Positions 3,595 to 20,728 of a DNA stretch of 26,724 nt are shown here, piece after piece (the first letter of the stretch is position 1; each line of letters starts with the position of its first letter). This DNA is from Clostridiales bacterium. GTDB lineage: Bacteria; Bacillota; Sulfobacillia; DYIH01; JBBITQ01. The notes under the pieces are model-generated. The model was not told the origin of the DNA. It saw nothing but the letters and a program-made list of their open reading frames with translations, and did not search any database. The stretch spans positions 1-26,724 of the forward strand of contig JBBITQ010000279.1 in the NCBI GenBank assembly GCA_037440685.1. The letters run 5' to 3'. The translations under genes and the position numbers were made by a program.

Positions 3595-4191
3595 TCATGG
3601 TTGCGAAGTCGGTGGAAGCTCCAAGTCACCGCAATCAAGACAGACGGTTCGATCCGGCTTGGGATCGCAGTCCATCAGGTTTCCCTGCCGGTCGAACTCG
3701 AACACGCAGCACTGATCGAGAACATCCCGTAGCATCGCTCGCCCCCGCTGGACACGGGACTTCGCACCTGACACCGACAGCCTCAGCCGGTCAGCCACTT
3801 CGTGCTGAGGCAAGCCCTCGATCTCCGACAGTCTGACGGCCTCTTGGTATGTCGGCGGAAGTTGGCCGATCAGTTCTTCGAGCCAAAGGCCAGCACTGGC
3901 CTTGAGTTGGTCCTTCCCATCGTTCTCTTCAGCCACATCGTTGTCCGCCAACGACACGTTGCCCTTCTTCGCTCGGTAGTGGTCGTTGACTACATTCCGA
4001 GCTATCTGGTAGACCCACGCCGCCAAGCGGTCGGAATCTTCGAGCTTGTCCACGTTGCGGTGAATCCGCAGGAACGTCTCTTGGAGCAGATCGTCAGCCA
4101 CATGCTCATCGGCGACCCGACGACGGATGAACCGTCGCAGGTCGTCGCTGAGTTGTGACCAGATCGTTTCAGTGGCAGGGTTCGCAGTCAT
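3595..4191 (-). CDS. sigZ: ECF RNA polymerase sigma factor, SigZ-like, with Cys-rich C-terminal extension (copy 1)
   Basis: Region 2 (ADDLLQETFLRIH, LAAWVYQIARN), region 4 (SVSGAKSRVQRGR), tail CC-x12-C-x8-CxxC; alternative start 4212 overlaps the upstream stop (ATGA). Confidence 0.85.
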   Translation of the reverse strand: MTANPATETIWSQLSDDLRRFIRRRVADEHVADDLLQETFLRIHRNVDKLEDSDRLAAWVYQIARNVVNDHYRAKKGNVSLADNDVAEENDGKDQLKASAGLWLEELIGQLPPTYQEAVRLSEIEGLPQHEVADRLRLSVSGAKSRVQRGRAMLRDVLDQCCVFEFDRQGNLMDCDPKPDRTVCLDCGDLELPPTSQP

Positions 4192-4208
4192 CGCATTCCT
4201 CTGACCCT

Positions 4209-4769
4209 TCATTCTCCCGCTTCGCTCAGGCAGGAGCAAGCTGTCATGCCACCAGCCGCATGAAAGGCTTCCTGCGCCGCCACGAAGTCCCCTCGCTCCA
4301 CGGCCTGCATGACGGATGGAATCCCCGAGCAGCACGAGGACTGGTTGGATGCGTGCTGCTGGGCTTCGTTGTCGAGGACGACGTACACCTCCCAGTTGTT
4401 TCCATCGGGATCGGAGACCCACACCTTGTCCTGCACGGCGTAGCAGCAGGTCACGTTTTCCTCAATTCTCGTCTCCAGCCCGGCCTGCTGGAGCCGGTCG
4501 GCGATCTGTTTGACGGCTTTGCTCGTCTTCACCTGAACGCCGAAGTGGGCGACCGGATTGTTCTGGCCGGTCTCGCCGCCGACTTCGTTCAGCGACAGGT
4601 TCACGGGCGGCTCGGCCACCTCGAACTTTGCGTACCGTGGCCGAGTCTTGGTCGGGGGCTGGCCGAAAAGGGACGTGTAGAAGGCGATGGACTTCTCCAA
4701 ACTCTTGACCGCCAAGCCCATGTGGATTCGACTCTCGGTCTCGAATTGAACTGCGGAATGCCTGTTCAT
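4209..4769 (-). CDS. arsI: ArsI/CadI-family VOC metalloenzyme (putative C-As lyase) with Cys-rich tail (copy 1), 186 aa
   Basis: RIHMGL, VAHFG, VTCCYAVQDKVWVSDPDGNNWEVY motifs; SD AGGAG; tail carries SSCC and CSC. Confidence 0.85.
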   Translation of the reverse strand: MNRHSAVQFETESRIHMGLAVKSLEKSIAFYTSLFGQPPTKTRPRYAKFEVAEPPVNLSLNEVGGETGQNNPVAHFGVQVKTSKAVKQIADRLQQAGLETRIEENVTCCYAVQDKVWVSDPDGNNWEVYVVLDNEAQQHASNQSSCCSGIPSVMQAVERGDFVAAQEAFHAAGGMTACSCLSEAGE

Positions 4770-4825
4770 GATCTTCTCCTCGTTCGTACTTCGACGGCTG
4801 CCGATCAGCCGCCTCTGGAAGAATA

Positions 4826-4851
4826 GACGGAGGTTTGCCGAAAAGGACGCA
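4826..4851 (-). promoter_or_regulatory. Candidate ECF-sigma promoter TGCGTC-N16-CGTC for arsI-sigZ (copy 1)
   Basis: Both boxes are conserved in the two repeat copies while the spacer varies; CGTC -10 with 16-bp spacing is typical of ECF promoters. Confidence 0.65.
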
Positions 4852-4912
4852 AGAATCCCGAGAGCAGCGGCGTGCGGCTGACTGACCATCGCAAACGCTC
4901 GGGTCGAGAGAG

Positions 4913-6421: not shown

Positions 6422-6484
6422 CGAACCACCTTTCCACCGGGATGACGAGAATAAGAACTCTTGTCGAAACCTCGTTCCACGTCT

Positions 6485-6516
6485 ATTATCGACATTGCAC
6501 CTAAGTACAAGGTCAA
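6485..6516 (-). promoter_or_regulatory. MerR-type promoter/operator for the fusion gene
   Basis: Minus strand TTGACC-N20-GATAAT with dyad ACCTTGTAC-TTAG-GTGCAATGT; long spacer is typical of MerR-family targets; divergent merR-like gene adjacent. Confidence 0.8.
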
Positions 6517-6592
6517 GGCGGTTTGGAGATTTTTTTCGAGCTTCGCCGTCTGGCACGCAAGCACTTGTAAACACACTGCTTACGGAGCGGCA

Positions 6593-7965: not shown

Positions 7966-8094
7966 CGGATGCCTCCTGCTTCTGGGGTGCTGCGCTGAAA
8001 TGCCGCCGAGACCCTCGCCGCTTTCTCTTTTGGTCGGGCGATGGAACGAACGGATGTCGCTCTTGCTCTTGACGAATCCCTCCAGTCATGCAAT

Positions 8095-8111
8095 TATTGC
8101 CATATTGCCAT
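8095..8111 (+). promoter_or_regulatory. Candidate ArsR operator (TATTGCCA x2) at the arsR start
   Basis: Tandem octamer overlapping the ATG, TTGACG at 8069-8074; related inverted motif at 8447-8470. Confidence 0.45.
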
Positions 8112-8430
8112 GAAAGAGAAAACCCGCAAACAATACGAAGCCCGAGCGAAGATCGCCAAAGCGATGGCGCATCCCAGCCGCTTGTTGATGCTCGATCTTC
8201 TGCAAAAGCAGGAGATGTGCGTCAGCGAACTGACCGAGGAAGTCGAGGCCGACCAATCCACGGTCTCGAAACACCTCGCCATCCTGAAGGATGTAGGACT
8301 CGTCGATGTTCGCAAGGAGGGGGCGCTGAGTTACTACCGAGTTGCCTGCGGCTGTCTCAGCGGGTTCTTCTCCTGCATCGAATCAGTCCTCCAGTCGGAC
8401 GTGAAGGATCGTCAGGCCACCTTGAAGTAG
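8110..8430 (+). CDS. arsR: ArsR/SmtB-family repressor, 106 aa
   Basis: KAMAHPSRL, EMCVSEL, QSTVSKHLAILK, VRKEG; C-terminal CGC-x6-C. Confidence 0.9.
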   Translation: MKEKTRKQYEARAKIAKAMAHPSRLLMLDLLQKQEMCVSELTEEVEADQSTVSKHLAILKDVGLVDVRKEGALSYYRVACGCLSGFFSCIESVLQSDVKDRQATLK

Positions 8431-17457: not shown

Positions 17458-18057
17458 CTACGAGTCGCCCCCGATGGATGGAATCTCCAAGTCGCCACAA
17501 TCACGGCAGACGGTGCGATCTGGCTTGGGATCGCAGTCCATCAGGTTGCCCTGCCGGTCGAACTCGAACACGCAGCATTGATCGAGTGCGCCTCGAAGCA
17601 AGACTCGCCCTCGCTGGACACGGGACTTCGCACCCGACACCGACAGGCCCAGTCGGTCAGCGACTTCGTGTTGGGGCAAGCCCTCGATCTCCGATAGTCT
17701 GACCGCCTCTTGGTAGGTCGGCGGAAGTTGACCAATCAGTTCGTCGAGCCAGATGCCCGCACTGGCCTTGAGTTGGTTCTCTCCATCGCTCTCTTCGGCC
17801 ACATCGTTGTCCGCCAGCGACACGTTGCCGTTCTTCGCCCGGTAGTGGTCGTGCATCACGTTGCGAGCGATCTGGTAGACCCACGCCGCCAAGCGGTCGG
17901 TCTCTTCGAGCTTGTCCACATTGCGATGAATCCGCAGGAAGGTCTCTTGGAGCAGATCGTCAGCCACATGCTCATCGGCGACCCGGCGACGGATGAACCG
18001 TCGCAGGTCGTCGCTGAGTTGAGACCAGATCGTTTCGGTGGCGGGGTTCGCAGTCAT
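17458..18057 (-). CDS. sigZ: SigZ-like ECF sigma factor with Cys-rich tail (copy 2)
   Basis: Paralog of 3595-4191, intact, same CC-x12-C-x8-CxxC tail; alternative start 18078. Confidence 0.85.
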   Translation of the reverse strand: MTANPATETIWSQLSDDLRRFIRRRVADEHVADDLLQETFLRIHRNVDKLEETDRLAAWVYQIARNVMHDHYRAKNGNVSLADNDVAEESDGENQLKASAGIWLDELIGQLPPTYQEAVRLSEIEGLPQHEVADRLGLSVSGAKSRVQRGRVLLRGALDQCCVFEFDRQGNLMDCDPKPDRTVCRDCGDLEIPSIGGDS

Positions 18058-18074
18058 CGCATTCCTCTGACCGT

Positions 18075-18635
18075 TCATGTTCCGGCTTCGCCCAAACAAG
18101 AGCAAGCTGTCATCCCACCTGCCGCATGAAAGGCTGCCTGAGCCGCCACGAAGTCGCCTCGCTCGACGGCCTGCATGACGGATGGAATCCCCGAGCAGCA
18201 CGAGGACTGGCTGGATGCGTGCTGCTGGGCTTCGTTGTCGAGGACGACGTACACCTCCCAGTTGTTTCCATCTGGATCGGCGACCCATACCTTGTCCTGC
18301 ACGGCGTAACAACAGGTCACGTTCTCTTCGATCCTCGTTTCGAGTCCGGCTTGTTGAAGCCGGTCGGCGATCTGTTTGACGGCTTCGCTCCTCTTCACCT
18401 GAATGCCGAAGTGGGCGACTGGGTTGTTCTGGCCGGTCTCGCCGCCGACTTCGTTCAGCGAGAGGTTCACGGGCGGCTCGGCAACCTCGAACTTGGCGTA
18501 CCGTGGCCGAGTCTTGGTCGGGGGCTGCCCGAGTAGAGACGTGTAGAAGGCGATGGACTTCTCCAGATTCTTCACGGCCAAGCCCATGTGGATTCGACTC
18601 TCGGTCTCGAATTGAACTGCGGATTTGGTGTTCAT
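18075..18635 (-). CDS. arsI: ArsI/CadI-family VOC metalloenzyme (copy 2), 186 aa
   Basis: Same length and motifs as copy 1 (TCCYA, H/H/E ligands, SSCC, CSC). Confidence 0.85.
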   Translation of the reverse strand: MNTKSAVQFETESRIHMGLAVKNLEKSIAFYTSLLGQPPTKTRPRYAKFEVAEPPVNLSLNEVGGETGQNNPVAHFGIQVKRSEAVKQIADRLQQAGLETRIEENVTCCYAVQDKVWVADPDGNNWEVYVVLDNEAQQHASSQSSCCSGIPSVMQAVERGDFVAAQAAFHAAGGMTACSCLGEAGT

Positions 18636-18691
18636 GATTTGCTCCTCCTTCGTGCTTCGACGGCTGCCAATCAGCCGTCTCTGAAAGTACA

Positions 18692-18717
18692 GACGGGGGT
18701 TCACCGAAAAGGACGCA
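18692..18717 (-). promoter_or_regulatory. Candidate ECF promoter TGCGTC-N16-CGTC (copy 2)
   Basis: Boxes identical to 4826-4851; homology between the repeats stops 4 nt beyond the -35 box. Confidence 0.65.
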
Positions 18718-18738
18718 AGAAATCGCCGAGCCGCCGAC

Positions 18739-19632
18739 TCAGGGCTTCCGTGCGATGACCGATTCGTCCCCGAGAGTGGCAGCAAGGCGAGTCACGGCCC
18801 AGCGGTGACTTTCATGCGTGAGGTGTGCCATTGCCTCGTCCTCTGCCAACCAGATGAGTTGGTGGTCAGCCTCGACGTGCGACCCCTTTGCCAAAACGAC
18901 GGCAGAGTAGAATGAACATCGCTTGCAGAAGTGCCGACCTTCATCCTCTGCGAAGACGAACTCGTCCGCCACGCCGATGGGCCTACCCGCTTCAACTGCC
19001 AGTCCGCACTCTTCCAGCACCTCACGCTTCAATGTGTCGATGGCCGACTCCCCCGTATCCTGCCCTCCTCCCGGCAGGTAGTTTCCCGTTGGTGTGGTGA
19101 CGACGGCGATTCGCCCGGCCTCGTCCGCAATCAGGGCATACGCACCGGGGCGCAGCGTGTAGCTGATGTCTTCGACTCGTTTCCCGAACTCTGGGAAGGC
19201 CAGCCCGATCTTGTCCAGAGGGGCAAGGTCCGGCTCGACGAAACCAGATTTGGCAGCCGGTTCCATGATCCGGTCTCTCGTGAAATAGCAGAGCAGGACT
19301 CGACGATCCAAAAGCTCGGGGTTTCGCTCGCAGAACTCGTGCGAGTCCTGAATCGGCCCATGCTCTCGCAGGGCTTGGTGGATCAGGCACATGAACGCTT
19401 GGGTCGTCGTTTCGTGGTAGCCCGTCAGAGGACCGTCTTCGACACCGTGAACGGCGTTGTACGCCTTGATGCCGGATCGCATCCGGTCGATGGCTTCGTC
19501 CAGCCCAAGGTGAGACAGGTACAGGAAGGCGATCCGAACTTGCGCCCGGTGGTTCCAGTGCGTGAACGGCAGCGAGCAGTCCAAGAACGCTCTCAAGAAG
19601 TCATCGTCGTTCACGGAATCTGCCCCAGTCAC
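18739..19632 (-). CDS. Uncharacterised N-terminal domain fused to a Nudix hydrolase, 297 aa
   Basis: Complete Nudix box GGQDTGESAIDTLKREVLEECGL; N-terminal half has WNHRAQ..YHETTT..EPDL. Confidence 0.8.
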   Translation of the reverse strand: MTGADSVNDDDFLRAFLDCSLPFTHWNHRAQVRIAFLYLSHLGLDEAIDRMRSGIKAYNAVHGVEDGPLTGYHETTTQAFMCLIHQALREHGPIQDSHEFCERNPELLDRRVLLCYFTRDRIMEPAAKSGFVEPDLAPLDKIGLAFPEFGKRVEDISYTLRPGAYALIADEAGRIAVVTTPTGNYLPGGGQDTGESAIDTLKREVLEECGLAVEAGRPIGVADEFVFAEDEGRHFCKRCSFYSAVVLAKGSHVEADHQLIWLAEDEAMAHLTHESHRWAVTRLAATLGDESVIARKP

Positions 19633-20582
19633 GCTCTACCTTCCTCGTTCAGACGCTTTCCCATGCTGATGCGGTCCTCGACCGAGTAGCCAAGGCTTTC
19701 GTAGAACGCCACGACGCCTGTATTCGTTGATCGCACTTGAAGATTGACCTTCGTGCAGCCGATCTCACGCAGCCGCCGCTCCGCTTCGAGCATCATCGCT
19801 CCTCCGATCCCCTCACGTTGCCTTTCGGGATGAACAGCCACCAAGTGCAGCCAACCTCGGTGCCCGTCGAAACCCGCCATCGTGGTTCCCACCACCCGCC
19901 CGTCGATCACGCCTACAAGAAACAGTTCCCGCTGCACTGATAGCTTACGGCGGATGTCCTCAGCCGGGGCGTTCCACGACGGCGGGTTCGGAAAAACCCT
20001 TCCCCACAGCCCGACAACATCGGCGTCGTCCTCTTCCCGATAGGGGCGCACGAGCAGCCCCGTCGTATGGGCGTCCTGCAAGGCAGGGTTCGTCTTCGAG
20101 TAGCAGACGACTTCGACCCCTTCGTGCTGAAAGCCCCGCTCAAACTCCATCCCGAGCTTCTCCATGATGCGGAGGGACGCTTTGTTCTCGGGCTGGGCCA
20201 CGGAGATCAAGCGGGGAAAGCCCCAGCGCTGAAACCCGTACTCCATGACCGCCGTGGCTGCTTCGGTGGCGAGTCCCTGTCCCCAGTAGTCCGGTCGCAG
20301 CCGCCAGCCGATCTCCACATCAGGAGCGAAGCCGTCCCAGAACCCGCAGAATCCGATCAGTTCGGCGTCTTCCCGATGGATGACTGGCCAGAGAATCCAG
20401 CCCCTCTGCCGACCGACTTCGATCCAATTGGCGATGCGGTTCTTGATTTGCTCGTCGGTCCACGGCTTCCCGTGGCCGATGTACCGCAGCACCCGAGGAT
20501 CGGTCGCCAAAGGCCGGAAGCGCTTCCAGTCATCGGGAACCCACTCTCGCAGGTACAGCCGCTCGGTCTCGCAAATCACCAT
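19629..20582 (-). CDS. Tandem GNAT acetyltransferase (RimJ/RimL-like + YpeA-like), 317 aa
   Basis: ETERLYLR..EIGWRLRPDYWGQGLATEA..NKASLRIMEKLG, then MAGFDGHRGW..VAVHPERQREGIG; SD GGAGG before ATG 20582. Confidence 0.88.
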   Translation of the reverse strand: MVICETERLYLREWVPDDWKRFRPLATDPRVLRYIGHGKPWTDEQIKNRIANWIEVGRQRGWILWPVIHREDAELIGFCGFWDGFAPDVEIGWRLRPDYWGQGLATEAATAVMEYGFQRWGFPRLISVAQPENKASLRIMEKLGMEFERGFQHEGVEVVCYSKTNPALQDAHTTGLLVRPYREEDDADVVGLWGRVFPNPPSWNAPAEDIRRKLSVQRELFLVGVIDGRVVGTTMAGFDGHRGWLHLVAVHPERQREGIGGAMMLEAERRLREIGCTKVNLQVRSTNTGVVAFYESLGYSVEDRISMGKRLNEEGRA

Positions 20583-20728
20583 TTCGCCTCCGGTCTTTAT
20601 CCTCGTCGCTGTGGTGTGGCGCTGAACTCCCGTCGCCAAACGCTGTAGGGGGCTGGTTCATCATCAGGACGTTCGACAGCAGGCAAAAGTTTCACCACTT
20701 CTGATGCCGTCCGGCTGACGCAGGCCAC

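Follow-up and report, generated by a model that had tools for sequence, protein, structure and literature searches.

Organization and Duplication of the arsI-sigZ Cassette

The minus strand of a 26,724-nucleotide stretch of DNA (contig JBBITQ010000279.1 of assembly GCA_037440685.1, Clostridiales bacterium; analyzed over its full length and hereafter called the window) carries a two-gene unit in which an ArsI/CadI-type gene (4209-4769; 186 aa, with a Cys-containing C-terminal tail) is followed by a gene for a SigZ-type extracytoplasmic function (ECF) sigma factor (3595-4191; 198 aa). The two genes are separated by 17 nt, with a GAGGAA ribosome-binding site before the sigma gene. Ahead of them lie a SigZ-type ECF promoter, identified by a motif match at 4826-4851, and a stem-loop in the 5' untranslated region (UTR), recognized from its inverted-repeat arms at 4793-4813. 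An earlier reading of the window from its letters alone (the original prediction) had described an arsI-like and then a sigZ-like gene behind a promoter of their own, and all of these elements were found in their places on the minus strand. The unit occurs a second time in the window, again on the minus strand, as an ArsI/CadI-type gene (18075-18635; 186 aa, 93.6% amino-acid identity to copy 1), a SigZ-type ECF sigma gene (17458-18057; 199 aa, ∼91% amino-acid identity to copy 1, with the same five Cys), a promoter matching the same motif (18692-18717), and a 5' UTR stem-loop with inverted-repeat arms (18659-18679).

The two copies align as a single ungapped match of 1243 nt (4855-3613 against 18721-17479) at 90.3% identity, which upholds the predicted second copy and adjusts its divergence from about 11% to ∼10%. 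The duplicated block starts 4 nt ahead of the -35 box and ends six codons short of the sigma stop codon, so that it takes in the promoter, the leader, arsI, and sigZ and nothing more. The arsI genes differ by 34 synonymous and 12 amino-acid differences and the sigma genes by 36 and 18, respectively, and the promoter boxes, the hairpin, and all five sigma Cys are preserved in both copies. Because the differences are mostly synonymous, both copies are, as judged from this comparison, maintained under purifying selection. In the sigma tree, copy 1 is joined by L004, a relative of 93% identity that comes from a different metagenome, with copy 2 just outside this pair; the duplication is therefore not very recent.

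The ArsI-Like Enzyme

The upstream gene scores 163.5 bits (copy 1) and 160.8 bits (copy 2) against the NCBIfam model NF041414 (ArsI/CadI; cut-off 116), a model that does not tell ArsI from CadI. The copy 1 product aligns over 120 residues (E 1.7e-32) with TcArsI of Thermomonospora curvata (5c4p), in which Gln8, His65, and Glu117 are the Fe(II) ligands and Cys98-Cys99 bind the organoarsenical (PMC6138428). Residues H16, H75, and E127 align with these three ligands, and C108-C109, within the motif CCYAVQDK, with the substrate-binding Cys pair, by which the gene is predicted to encode an ArsI-like C-As lyase. A comparison of the C-terminal tails of sigma-linked and other ArsI proteins found CC motifs in both and no clear difference between them.

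The SigZ-Type Sigma Factor and Its Cysteine Tail

The sigma protein of copy 1 contains a sigma2 domain (PF04542, residues 13-76) and a sigma4 domain (PF08281, residues 103-154) only, with no sigma3 or sigma1, and is on this domain composition classified as an ECF (group 4) sigma-70 factor. The SigZ model TIGR02959 is passed by both copies at 196.8 and 197.4 bits (cut-off 168.65), with residues 11-178 on model positions 1-168 of 170, most of the tail being included, and NF007215 gives 208.1 and 207.4 bits, slightly below its cut-off of 212. The protein has no Cys outside its C-terminal tail, which in both copies reads CC-x12-C-x8-CxxC over residues 161-187 (CC161-162, C175, C184, and C187). Among 79 relatives, CC161-162 is retained in 76-78, C184 in 73, and C187 in 66, with C175 limited to a planctomycete subset. 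Of 139 sequences among the top 150 library representatives, 134 carry the CC pair (120 of these with at least two further Cys) and just one has a CxC in the linker. The five-Cys tail of the original prediction is accordingly present in both copies, but as a family trait it reduces to four conserved Cys (CC161-162, C184, and C187).

In an AlphaFold2 model of the sigma, with a predicted local distance difference test (pLDDT) score of 82, the last sigma4 helix spans residues 140-161 and is followed by the strands of a β-hairpin (162-166 and 172-177), so that the CC pair sits at the junction of helix and hairpin and the CxxC lies on a short low-confidence turn after the hairpin. Foldseek searches against the PDB returned the ECF sigmas SigE, SigH, and SigW as best matches; these covered ECF cores only, and the tail found no precedent there.

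The ECF238 group, which holds SigZ of B. subtilis and CorE2 of M. xanthus, is described as having a Cys-rich extension of ∼20 aa, for which a sensing role has been proposed, and no anti-sigma factor (Casas-Pastor et al., 2021; PMC7826278). The short Cys-containing C-terminal extension recurs here in the five Cys of residues 161-187, and the genes after both sigma copies are convergent, in keeping with the lack of a neighboring anti-sigma. No conserved gene, anti-sigma or other, follows the sigma in 12 arsI-linked loci of relatives, and the bin of the source genome yielded no zf-HC2 match, which is weak evidence, the contig being a compositional outlier of that bin. The claim that the unit lacks an anti-sigma is thus sustained in cis.

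A Cognate Promoter Shared Across Phyla

The copy 1 promoter reads TGCGTCCTTTT-N11-CGTC at 4851-4826, upstream of arsI, and comprises a -35 box TGCGTC(CTTTT) at 4851-4841 and a -10 box CGTC(T) at 4829-4825, with a spacer of 16 nt between TGCGTC and CGTC; transcription would be expected to start near 4820-4817. Allowing at most one mismatch, TGCGTC-N16-CGTC has just two matches in the window, at 4851-4826 and 18717-18692 (0.16 expected), which agrees with its predicted presence at both copies. No sigma-70-type promoter or minus-strand terminator was found between 3300 and 5100.

The original prediction had called for a survey of sigZ homolog neighborhoods for arsI linkage and for this motif. Such a survey was made over 80 loci encoding relatives of the sigma, taken from one-genome-per-species contigs, in which a strict motif (TGCGTCYT[TC]-N12-14-CGTC) was compared with the opposite strand and with shuffled sequences. 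Both the linkage and the motif were found: 65 loci together contribute 83 motif occurrences on the strand of the sigma gene, compared with a single one on the opposite strand and 0.2 after shuffling, and these matches define an extended consensus, tTGCGTCYTTTt-N11-CGTCTnTA, with the 16-nt spacer in 67 of the 83. At 15 arsI-linked sites (the two copies in the window, 12 arsI-linked loci, and one locus in which a remnant of arsI persists), TG(C)GTC and CGTCT show little or no variation while the spacer varies freely; arsI-linked sites with these boxes were found in Planctomycetota, Acidobacteriota, and Nitrospirota. When five whole genomes of relatives were scanned, matches in excess of the level of a control pattern lay at SigZ loci. 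In a complete 3.8-Mb Nitrospirales genome, for example, the motif matches four times and the control pattern never; each match falls at one of the three SigZ loci of this genome, all of which carry arsI. In the bin of the source genome, the strict motif was absent beyond the two window sites, a result of little weight given that the contig is an outlier of the bin.

Because the two boxes are invariant across phyla and restricted to the neighborhood of such sigmas, they are assigned, on comparative grounds, as the cognate promoter of this sigma family, and the regulon appears to be essentially the cassette itself. Since the sigma gene sits behind its own promoter, the sigma very probably activates that promoter in vivo, in positive autoregulation, which accords with the earlier claim that it drives its own operon. 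Taken together, we hold with high confidence that the window contains a real, conserved, and self-contained arsI-sigZ cassette driven by the promoter of its own sigma.

The three SigZ loci of the Nitrospirales chromosome (G005; loci L090/L085, L093, and L095) share the same promoter boxes. Multi-copy cassettes recur, and the paralogous sigmas of this genome could cross-activate.

Linkage of the Sigma Family to Arsenic Genes

An ars-type gene lies within 4 kb in 62 of the 80 loci (ArsM in 31, ArsI in 12, and ArsP_1 in 12), and a MerTP/heavy-metal-associated (HMA) query matched in just one. The gene right after the motif is most often that of the sigma itself (22) or of ArsM (22; NF008823 at 289-376 bits against a cut-off of 263), followed by ArsI (12) and an ArsP_1-family permease (8), with single cases of DUF6428, DUF2703, and small Cys-pair peptides. 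In the sigma tree, every arsI-linked sigma belongs to one clade (support 99/91) made up of Planctomycetota, Nitrospirota, and Acidobacteriota. The family as a whole is far larger: a profile search of 1.84 billion representatives returned 1,617 clusters at E <= 1e-30, that is, a family of ∼1,600 clusters at 50% identity spread over many phyla.

The linkage was also surveyed in reverse, from arsI to its partners, in an even sample of 301 Planctomycetota genomes, 38 of which encode an ArsI/CadI protein above the cut-off. Among the best 30 of these 38 loci, arsR lies within 1.5 kb of arsI in 13 and a SigZ-type sigma gene right after arsI in 3, and no locus has both. Pairing of arsI with the sigma is the less frequent alternative to ArsR in Planctomycetota, and the partner counts fit the idea of the sigma replacing ArsR. 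That this sigma and its promoter recur next to arsenic genes across many phyla suggests an arsenic switch other than the ArsR repressor.

Several proteins and reading frames met in these searches are recorded here in their own right. P0133 (511 aa) is an apparent fusion of a SigZ-type sigma with a C-terminal ArsM-like methyltransferase, and P0077 (318 aa) of an N-terminal GNAT acetyltransferase with a SigZ-type sigma; each may be real or a gene-calling read-through. In three planctomycete loci without arsI (L013:3782-3988, L047:3782-3976, and L054:3771-3962), an open reading frame of 64-69 aa rich in Cys-Cys doublets (e.g., repeated CCVP) lies between the SigZ promoter and the sigma gene, and may encode a thiol-rich binder under control of the sigma.

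The 5' Hairpin

The copy 1 hairpin, GGCGGCTG-ATCGG-CAGCCGTC (arms 4806-4813 and 4793-4800), has 8 bp including one G.U pair and begins ∼5-8 nt into the predicted transcript. Its counterpart in copy 2, GACGGCTG-ATTGG-CAGCCGTC (arms 18672-18679 and 18659-18666), forms a perfect 8 bp, so the reported retention of the hairpin in the second copy holds. A hairpin occurs at the same place, 11-13 nt past CGTCT, in 13 of the 15 arsI-linked loci, and is absent from L007 and L028 despite an intact cassette. The stem sequence deviates in L018, L012, L025, and L006, and G.U pairs are found in copy 1 and in L006. Neither the window nor the leader matched any Rfam family. The G.U pairs, and the presence of different stems at the same position, favor a 5' stem-loop in the RNA over a DNA operator, and the hairpin probably serves as a 5' mRNA stabilizer.

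A Proposed Arsenical-Gated Switch and Its Alternatives

The best explanation of these observations, which we consider moderately probable, is a self-contained, positively autoregulated cassette whose sigma is gated by a trivalent arsenical through its own tail. The sigma would recognize TGCGTCYTTT-N(11-12)-CGTCT and thereby transcribe arsI and itself, and its activity would be gated by a C-terminal module consisting of the vicinal Cys pair at the end of the sigma4 helix, the conserved β-hairpin (FEFDRxGN..D), and the terminal CxxC. Binding of arsenite (As(III)) or methylarsenite (MAs(III)) would switch the sigma to its active form, much as Cd/Zn do for CorE2 and Cu for CorE. ArsI would in turn cleave the C-As bond of trivalent organoarsenicals, and the arsenite so released would be dealt with by the neighboring acr3-arsR-arsC-arsC-arsD-arsA operon. 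The gating of the sigma by trivalent arsenicals through its Cys tail, taken as a step by itself, is given an even to slightly better than even chance. Its ligand would most likely be As(III) and/or MAs(III), with no sign of a preference for organoarsenicals over arsenite. Comparable arrangements occur in repressors: the As(III) sites of AfArsR (Cys95-96-102) and CgArsR (Cys15-16-55) combine a vicinal CC pair with a third Cys, and the two-Cys site of SpArsR senses MAs(III) only (PMC11868830). Extended to the whole family, the proposal would make SigZ-type sigmas with a tail of CC, β-hairpin, and terminal Cys widespread direct sensors of trivalent arsenicals, controlling arsM, arsI, and ArsP_1-type permeases by ligand-activated autoregulation, a generalization for which we regard the chances as evenly balanced.

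Several points weigh against an arsenical-gated sigma. The conservation of the Cys is partly a matter of ascertainment, the 80 loci having been gathered partly via tail peptides and the library profile including the tail, although the independent NCBIfam SigZ model likewise spans it; moreover, the terminal CxxC is modeled at a pLDDT of only ∼50. The original prediction had no ArsR attached to the unit, which is correct for the cassette itself and not for its surroundings, in that arsR of the neighboring ars operon (8041-8430) lies 3.2 kb away; since arsR is also divergent from arsI in L006, dual control is conceivable. With no minus-strand terminator between copy 1 and the merTP gene upstream, read-through in response to another signal could occur, and the outlier status of the contig within its bin places other regulators of the host beyond view. 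Finally, the ArsI/CadI family owes its name partly to cadmium induction, and CorE2, itself an ECF238 sigma, responds to Cd/Zn via its Cys-rich domain, with a single Cys change turning it to copper.

The response of CorE2 also feeds an explanation that we consider improbable, in which the same design answers to a different thiophilic metal (Cd(II), Zn(II), or Hg(II), for instance), the enzyme being a CadI-type cadmium-induced protein and not a C-As lyase. The failure of NCBIfam to separate ArsI from CadI suits this explanation, as do the four conserved Cys, which could make a tetrathiolate site, and the MerT/HMA fusion gene, itself paired with merR, that immediately precedes copy 1 without an intervening terminator being found. 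The genes driven by the motif nevertheless encode ArsM, ArsI, and ArsP_1-family permeases, the contrast between ars-type and MerTP/HMA genes (62 against 1 of the 80 loci) points the same way, and the linker CxC that CorE and CorE2 need is absent here, as it is from all but one of the 139 representatives.

Of similarly low probability is the view that the Cys tail is a structural zinc site or a thiol-redox switch, with the output of the cassette arising through read-through and positive feedback or under an unlinked anti-sigma. The CC pair, β-hairpin, and CxxC do look like a zinc-ribbon-like knuckle pair, arsenicals and soft metals also provoke thiol stress, and Bacillaceae SigZ retains the CC pair only and has no arsenic link; an unlinked anti-sigma, for its part, would be out of view in a host genome of which the contig is a bin outlier. 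An unregulated sigma acting on its own promoter would run away, however, and an anti-sigma is at odds with the lack of a conserved cis partner in the 12 arsI-linked loci and, more weakly, with the lack of zf-HC2 in the bin. A general redox role would, in addition, leave the tight and arsenic-specific gene linkage unexplained.

The least likely explanation, that the inverted repeat is a DNA operator for a repressor such as the ArsR encoded 3.2 kb away, which would sense arsenic while the sigma merely amplifies, can point to arms (GGCTG/CAGCC) that are conserved in sequence in 9 of the 13 hairpin-bearing loci and to an arsR in the same island, divergent from arsI in L006, but is opposed by the G.U pairs and quite different stems described above, by the cassettes of L007 and L028 that are intact without a hairpin, and by the lack of ArsR within 4 kb of most arsI-sigZ loci.

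Control of bacterial arsenic genes is ascribed to ArsR repressors, and to our knowledge the SigZ branch of ECF238 is without a known function. If gating by trivalent arsenicals is correct, the sigma would represent a second and mechanistically different arsenic switch, would give the SigZ branch a function, and would add a metalloid to the metals that sigma factors (CorE and CorE2) sense directly. The module is small, consisting of one promoter and one protein, and its promoter is nearly absent elsewhere in the genomes searched, which would make it an attractive orthogonal part for arsenic biosensors. As it drives arsM or arsI depending on the lineage, it would also bear on how microbes in soils and sediments choose between methylation and demethylation of arsenic.

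Genomic Context and Host

Copy 1 is located directly downstream of a MerT/HMA fusion gene paired with a divergent merR, on the other side of which lies the acr3-arsR-arsC-arsC-arsD-arsA operon. Between merTP and merR (∼6478-6520), an apparent MerR-type promoter for the merTP-fusion gene was noted by eye, with the elements TTGACC, a 20-nt spacer containing the dyad TTGTAC-TTAG-GTGCAA, and GATAAT. Immediately upstream of copy 2 (18739-20639) are a gene for a double-GNAT acetyltransferase and one for a NUDIX-domain protein, the stop codon of the latter falling ∼20 nt short of the -35 box; ArsN-type GNAT enzymes act on arsinothricin. The two cassettes form direct repeats (3613-4855 and 17479-18721) flanking a cargo of 12.6 kb that consists of the merTP fusion, merR, acr3-arsR-arsC-arsC-arsD-arsA, bacA/uppP, mgtE, and an ATP-binding cassette (ABC) permease/ATPase pair, and recombination from repeat to repeat could excise or amplify this cargo.

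The G+C content of the contig is 57.7%, compared with 69.3% (standard deviation 2.4) for the bin, of which it is the largest outlier in both G+C and tetranucleotide composition. Its nearest relative by sigma identity, L004, is binned as Bacteroidales, and the other close relatives are all Planctomycetota. Probably, the contig either was assigned to the wrong bin or represents a mobile island. Of the sequencing runs, only DNA runs from a subsurface metagenome contain the stretch; RNA runs available as contigs account for small shares, and none with raw reads contains this sequence.

Comparison with Known Systems

Among the closest known counterparts of the proposed switch are CorE and CorE2 of Myxococcus xanthus (CorE-like sigma factors, formerly ECF44, with CorE2 in ECF238s15), which are likewise ECF sigmas with a Cys-rich C-terminal extension and no anti-sigma; through this domain, CorE is activated by Cu and CorE2 by Cd/Zn (PMC4937300). 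CorE also regulates its own expression, as the present sigma is predicted to do, and the regulon is again small and local (PMC4937300). In contrast, both CorE proteins additionally need a CxC in the linker between sigma2 and sigma4.2, and a single Cys change shifts the specificity of CorE2 to copper (PMC4937300), whereas the sigma described here has no Cys outside residues 161-187. The CorE-type domain carries six Cys in 28-38 aa in place of the conserved CC, β-hairpin, and CxxC, and the CorE-type factors, with Cu and Cd/Zn as ligands, control genes for metal efflux or oxidases instead of ars genes.

Like B. subtilis SigZ and ECF238 in general, the present sigma ends in a short extension that contains Cys and has no anti-sigma, and it passes the SigZ model TIGR02959. 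Bacillaceae SigZ differs, as exemplified by sigZ on the Priestia megaterium plasmid NZ_CP071475.1 (L096, 54801-55331), which encodes the CC pair only and no terminal Cys, has no TGCGTC-N16-CGTC nearby, and is divergent from an aldo/keto reductase gene, with no ars genes. The clade linked to arsenic genes thus stands apart from SigZ sensu stricto.

Literature searches yielded no report of a connection between SigZ and arsenite, between arsM and an ECF sigma, or between an ECF sigma and an ars operon, and the main text of Rhodius 2013 mentions neither ECF24, ECF44, nor SigZ. The anti-sigma-free, self-sensing design is already known, and the arsenic regulon and promoter are the new part. The original prediction had presented the whole as a switch not recognized as described, which stands for the arsenic regulon and its promoter and not for anti-sigma-free sensing by a Cys tail, published for ECF238. 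Its wider interpretation likewise survives in the cognate promoter, the lack of an anti-sigma in cis, and the arsenic linkage, and gives way on the conservation of all five Cys and on the novelty of self-sensing.

ArsR/SmtB repressors with C-terminal As(III) sites (AfArsR, CgArsR, and SpArsR) share the ligand chemistry proposed for the sigma, a vicinal Cys pair and a further Cys near the end of a helix, and they control genes of the arsI/arsM type; they are, however, repressors released by their ligand, whereas the sigma would be activated with feedback on itself, and the folds are unrelated. The enzyme, finally, resembles the ArsI C-As lyases of Bacillus sp. MD1 and T. curvata (5c4p) in its Fe(II) ligands and its Cys-Cys substrate site, and departs from them in a longer C-terminal tail (CC, CxC) and in sharing its operon with a sigma factor rather than belonging to one controlled by ArsR.

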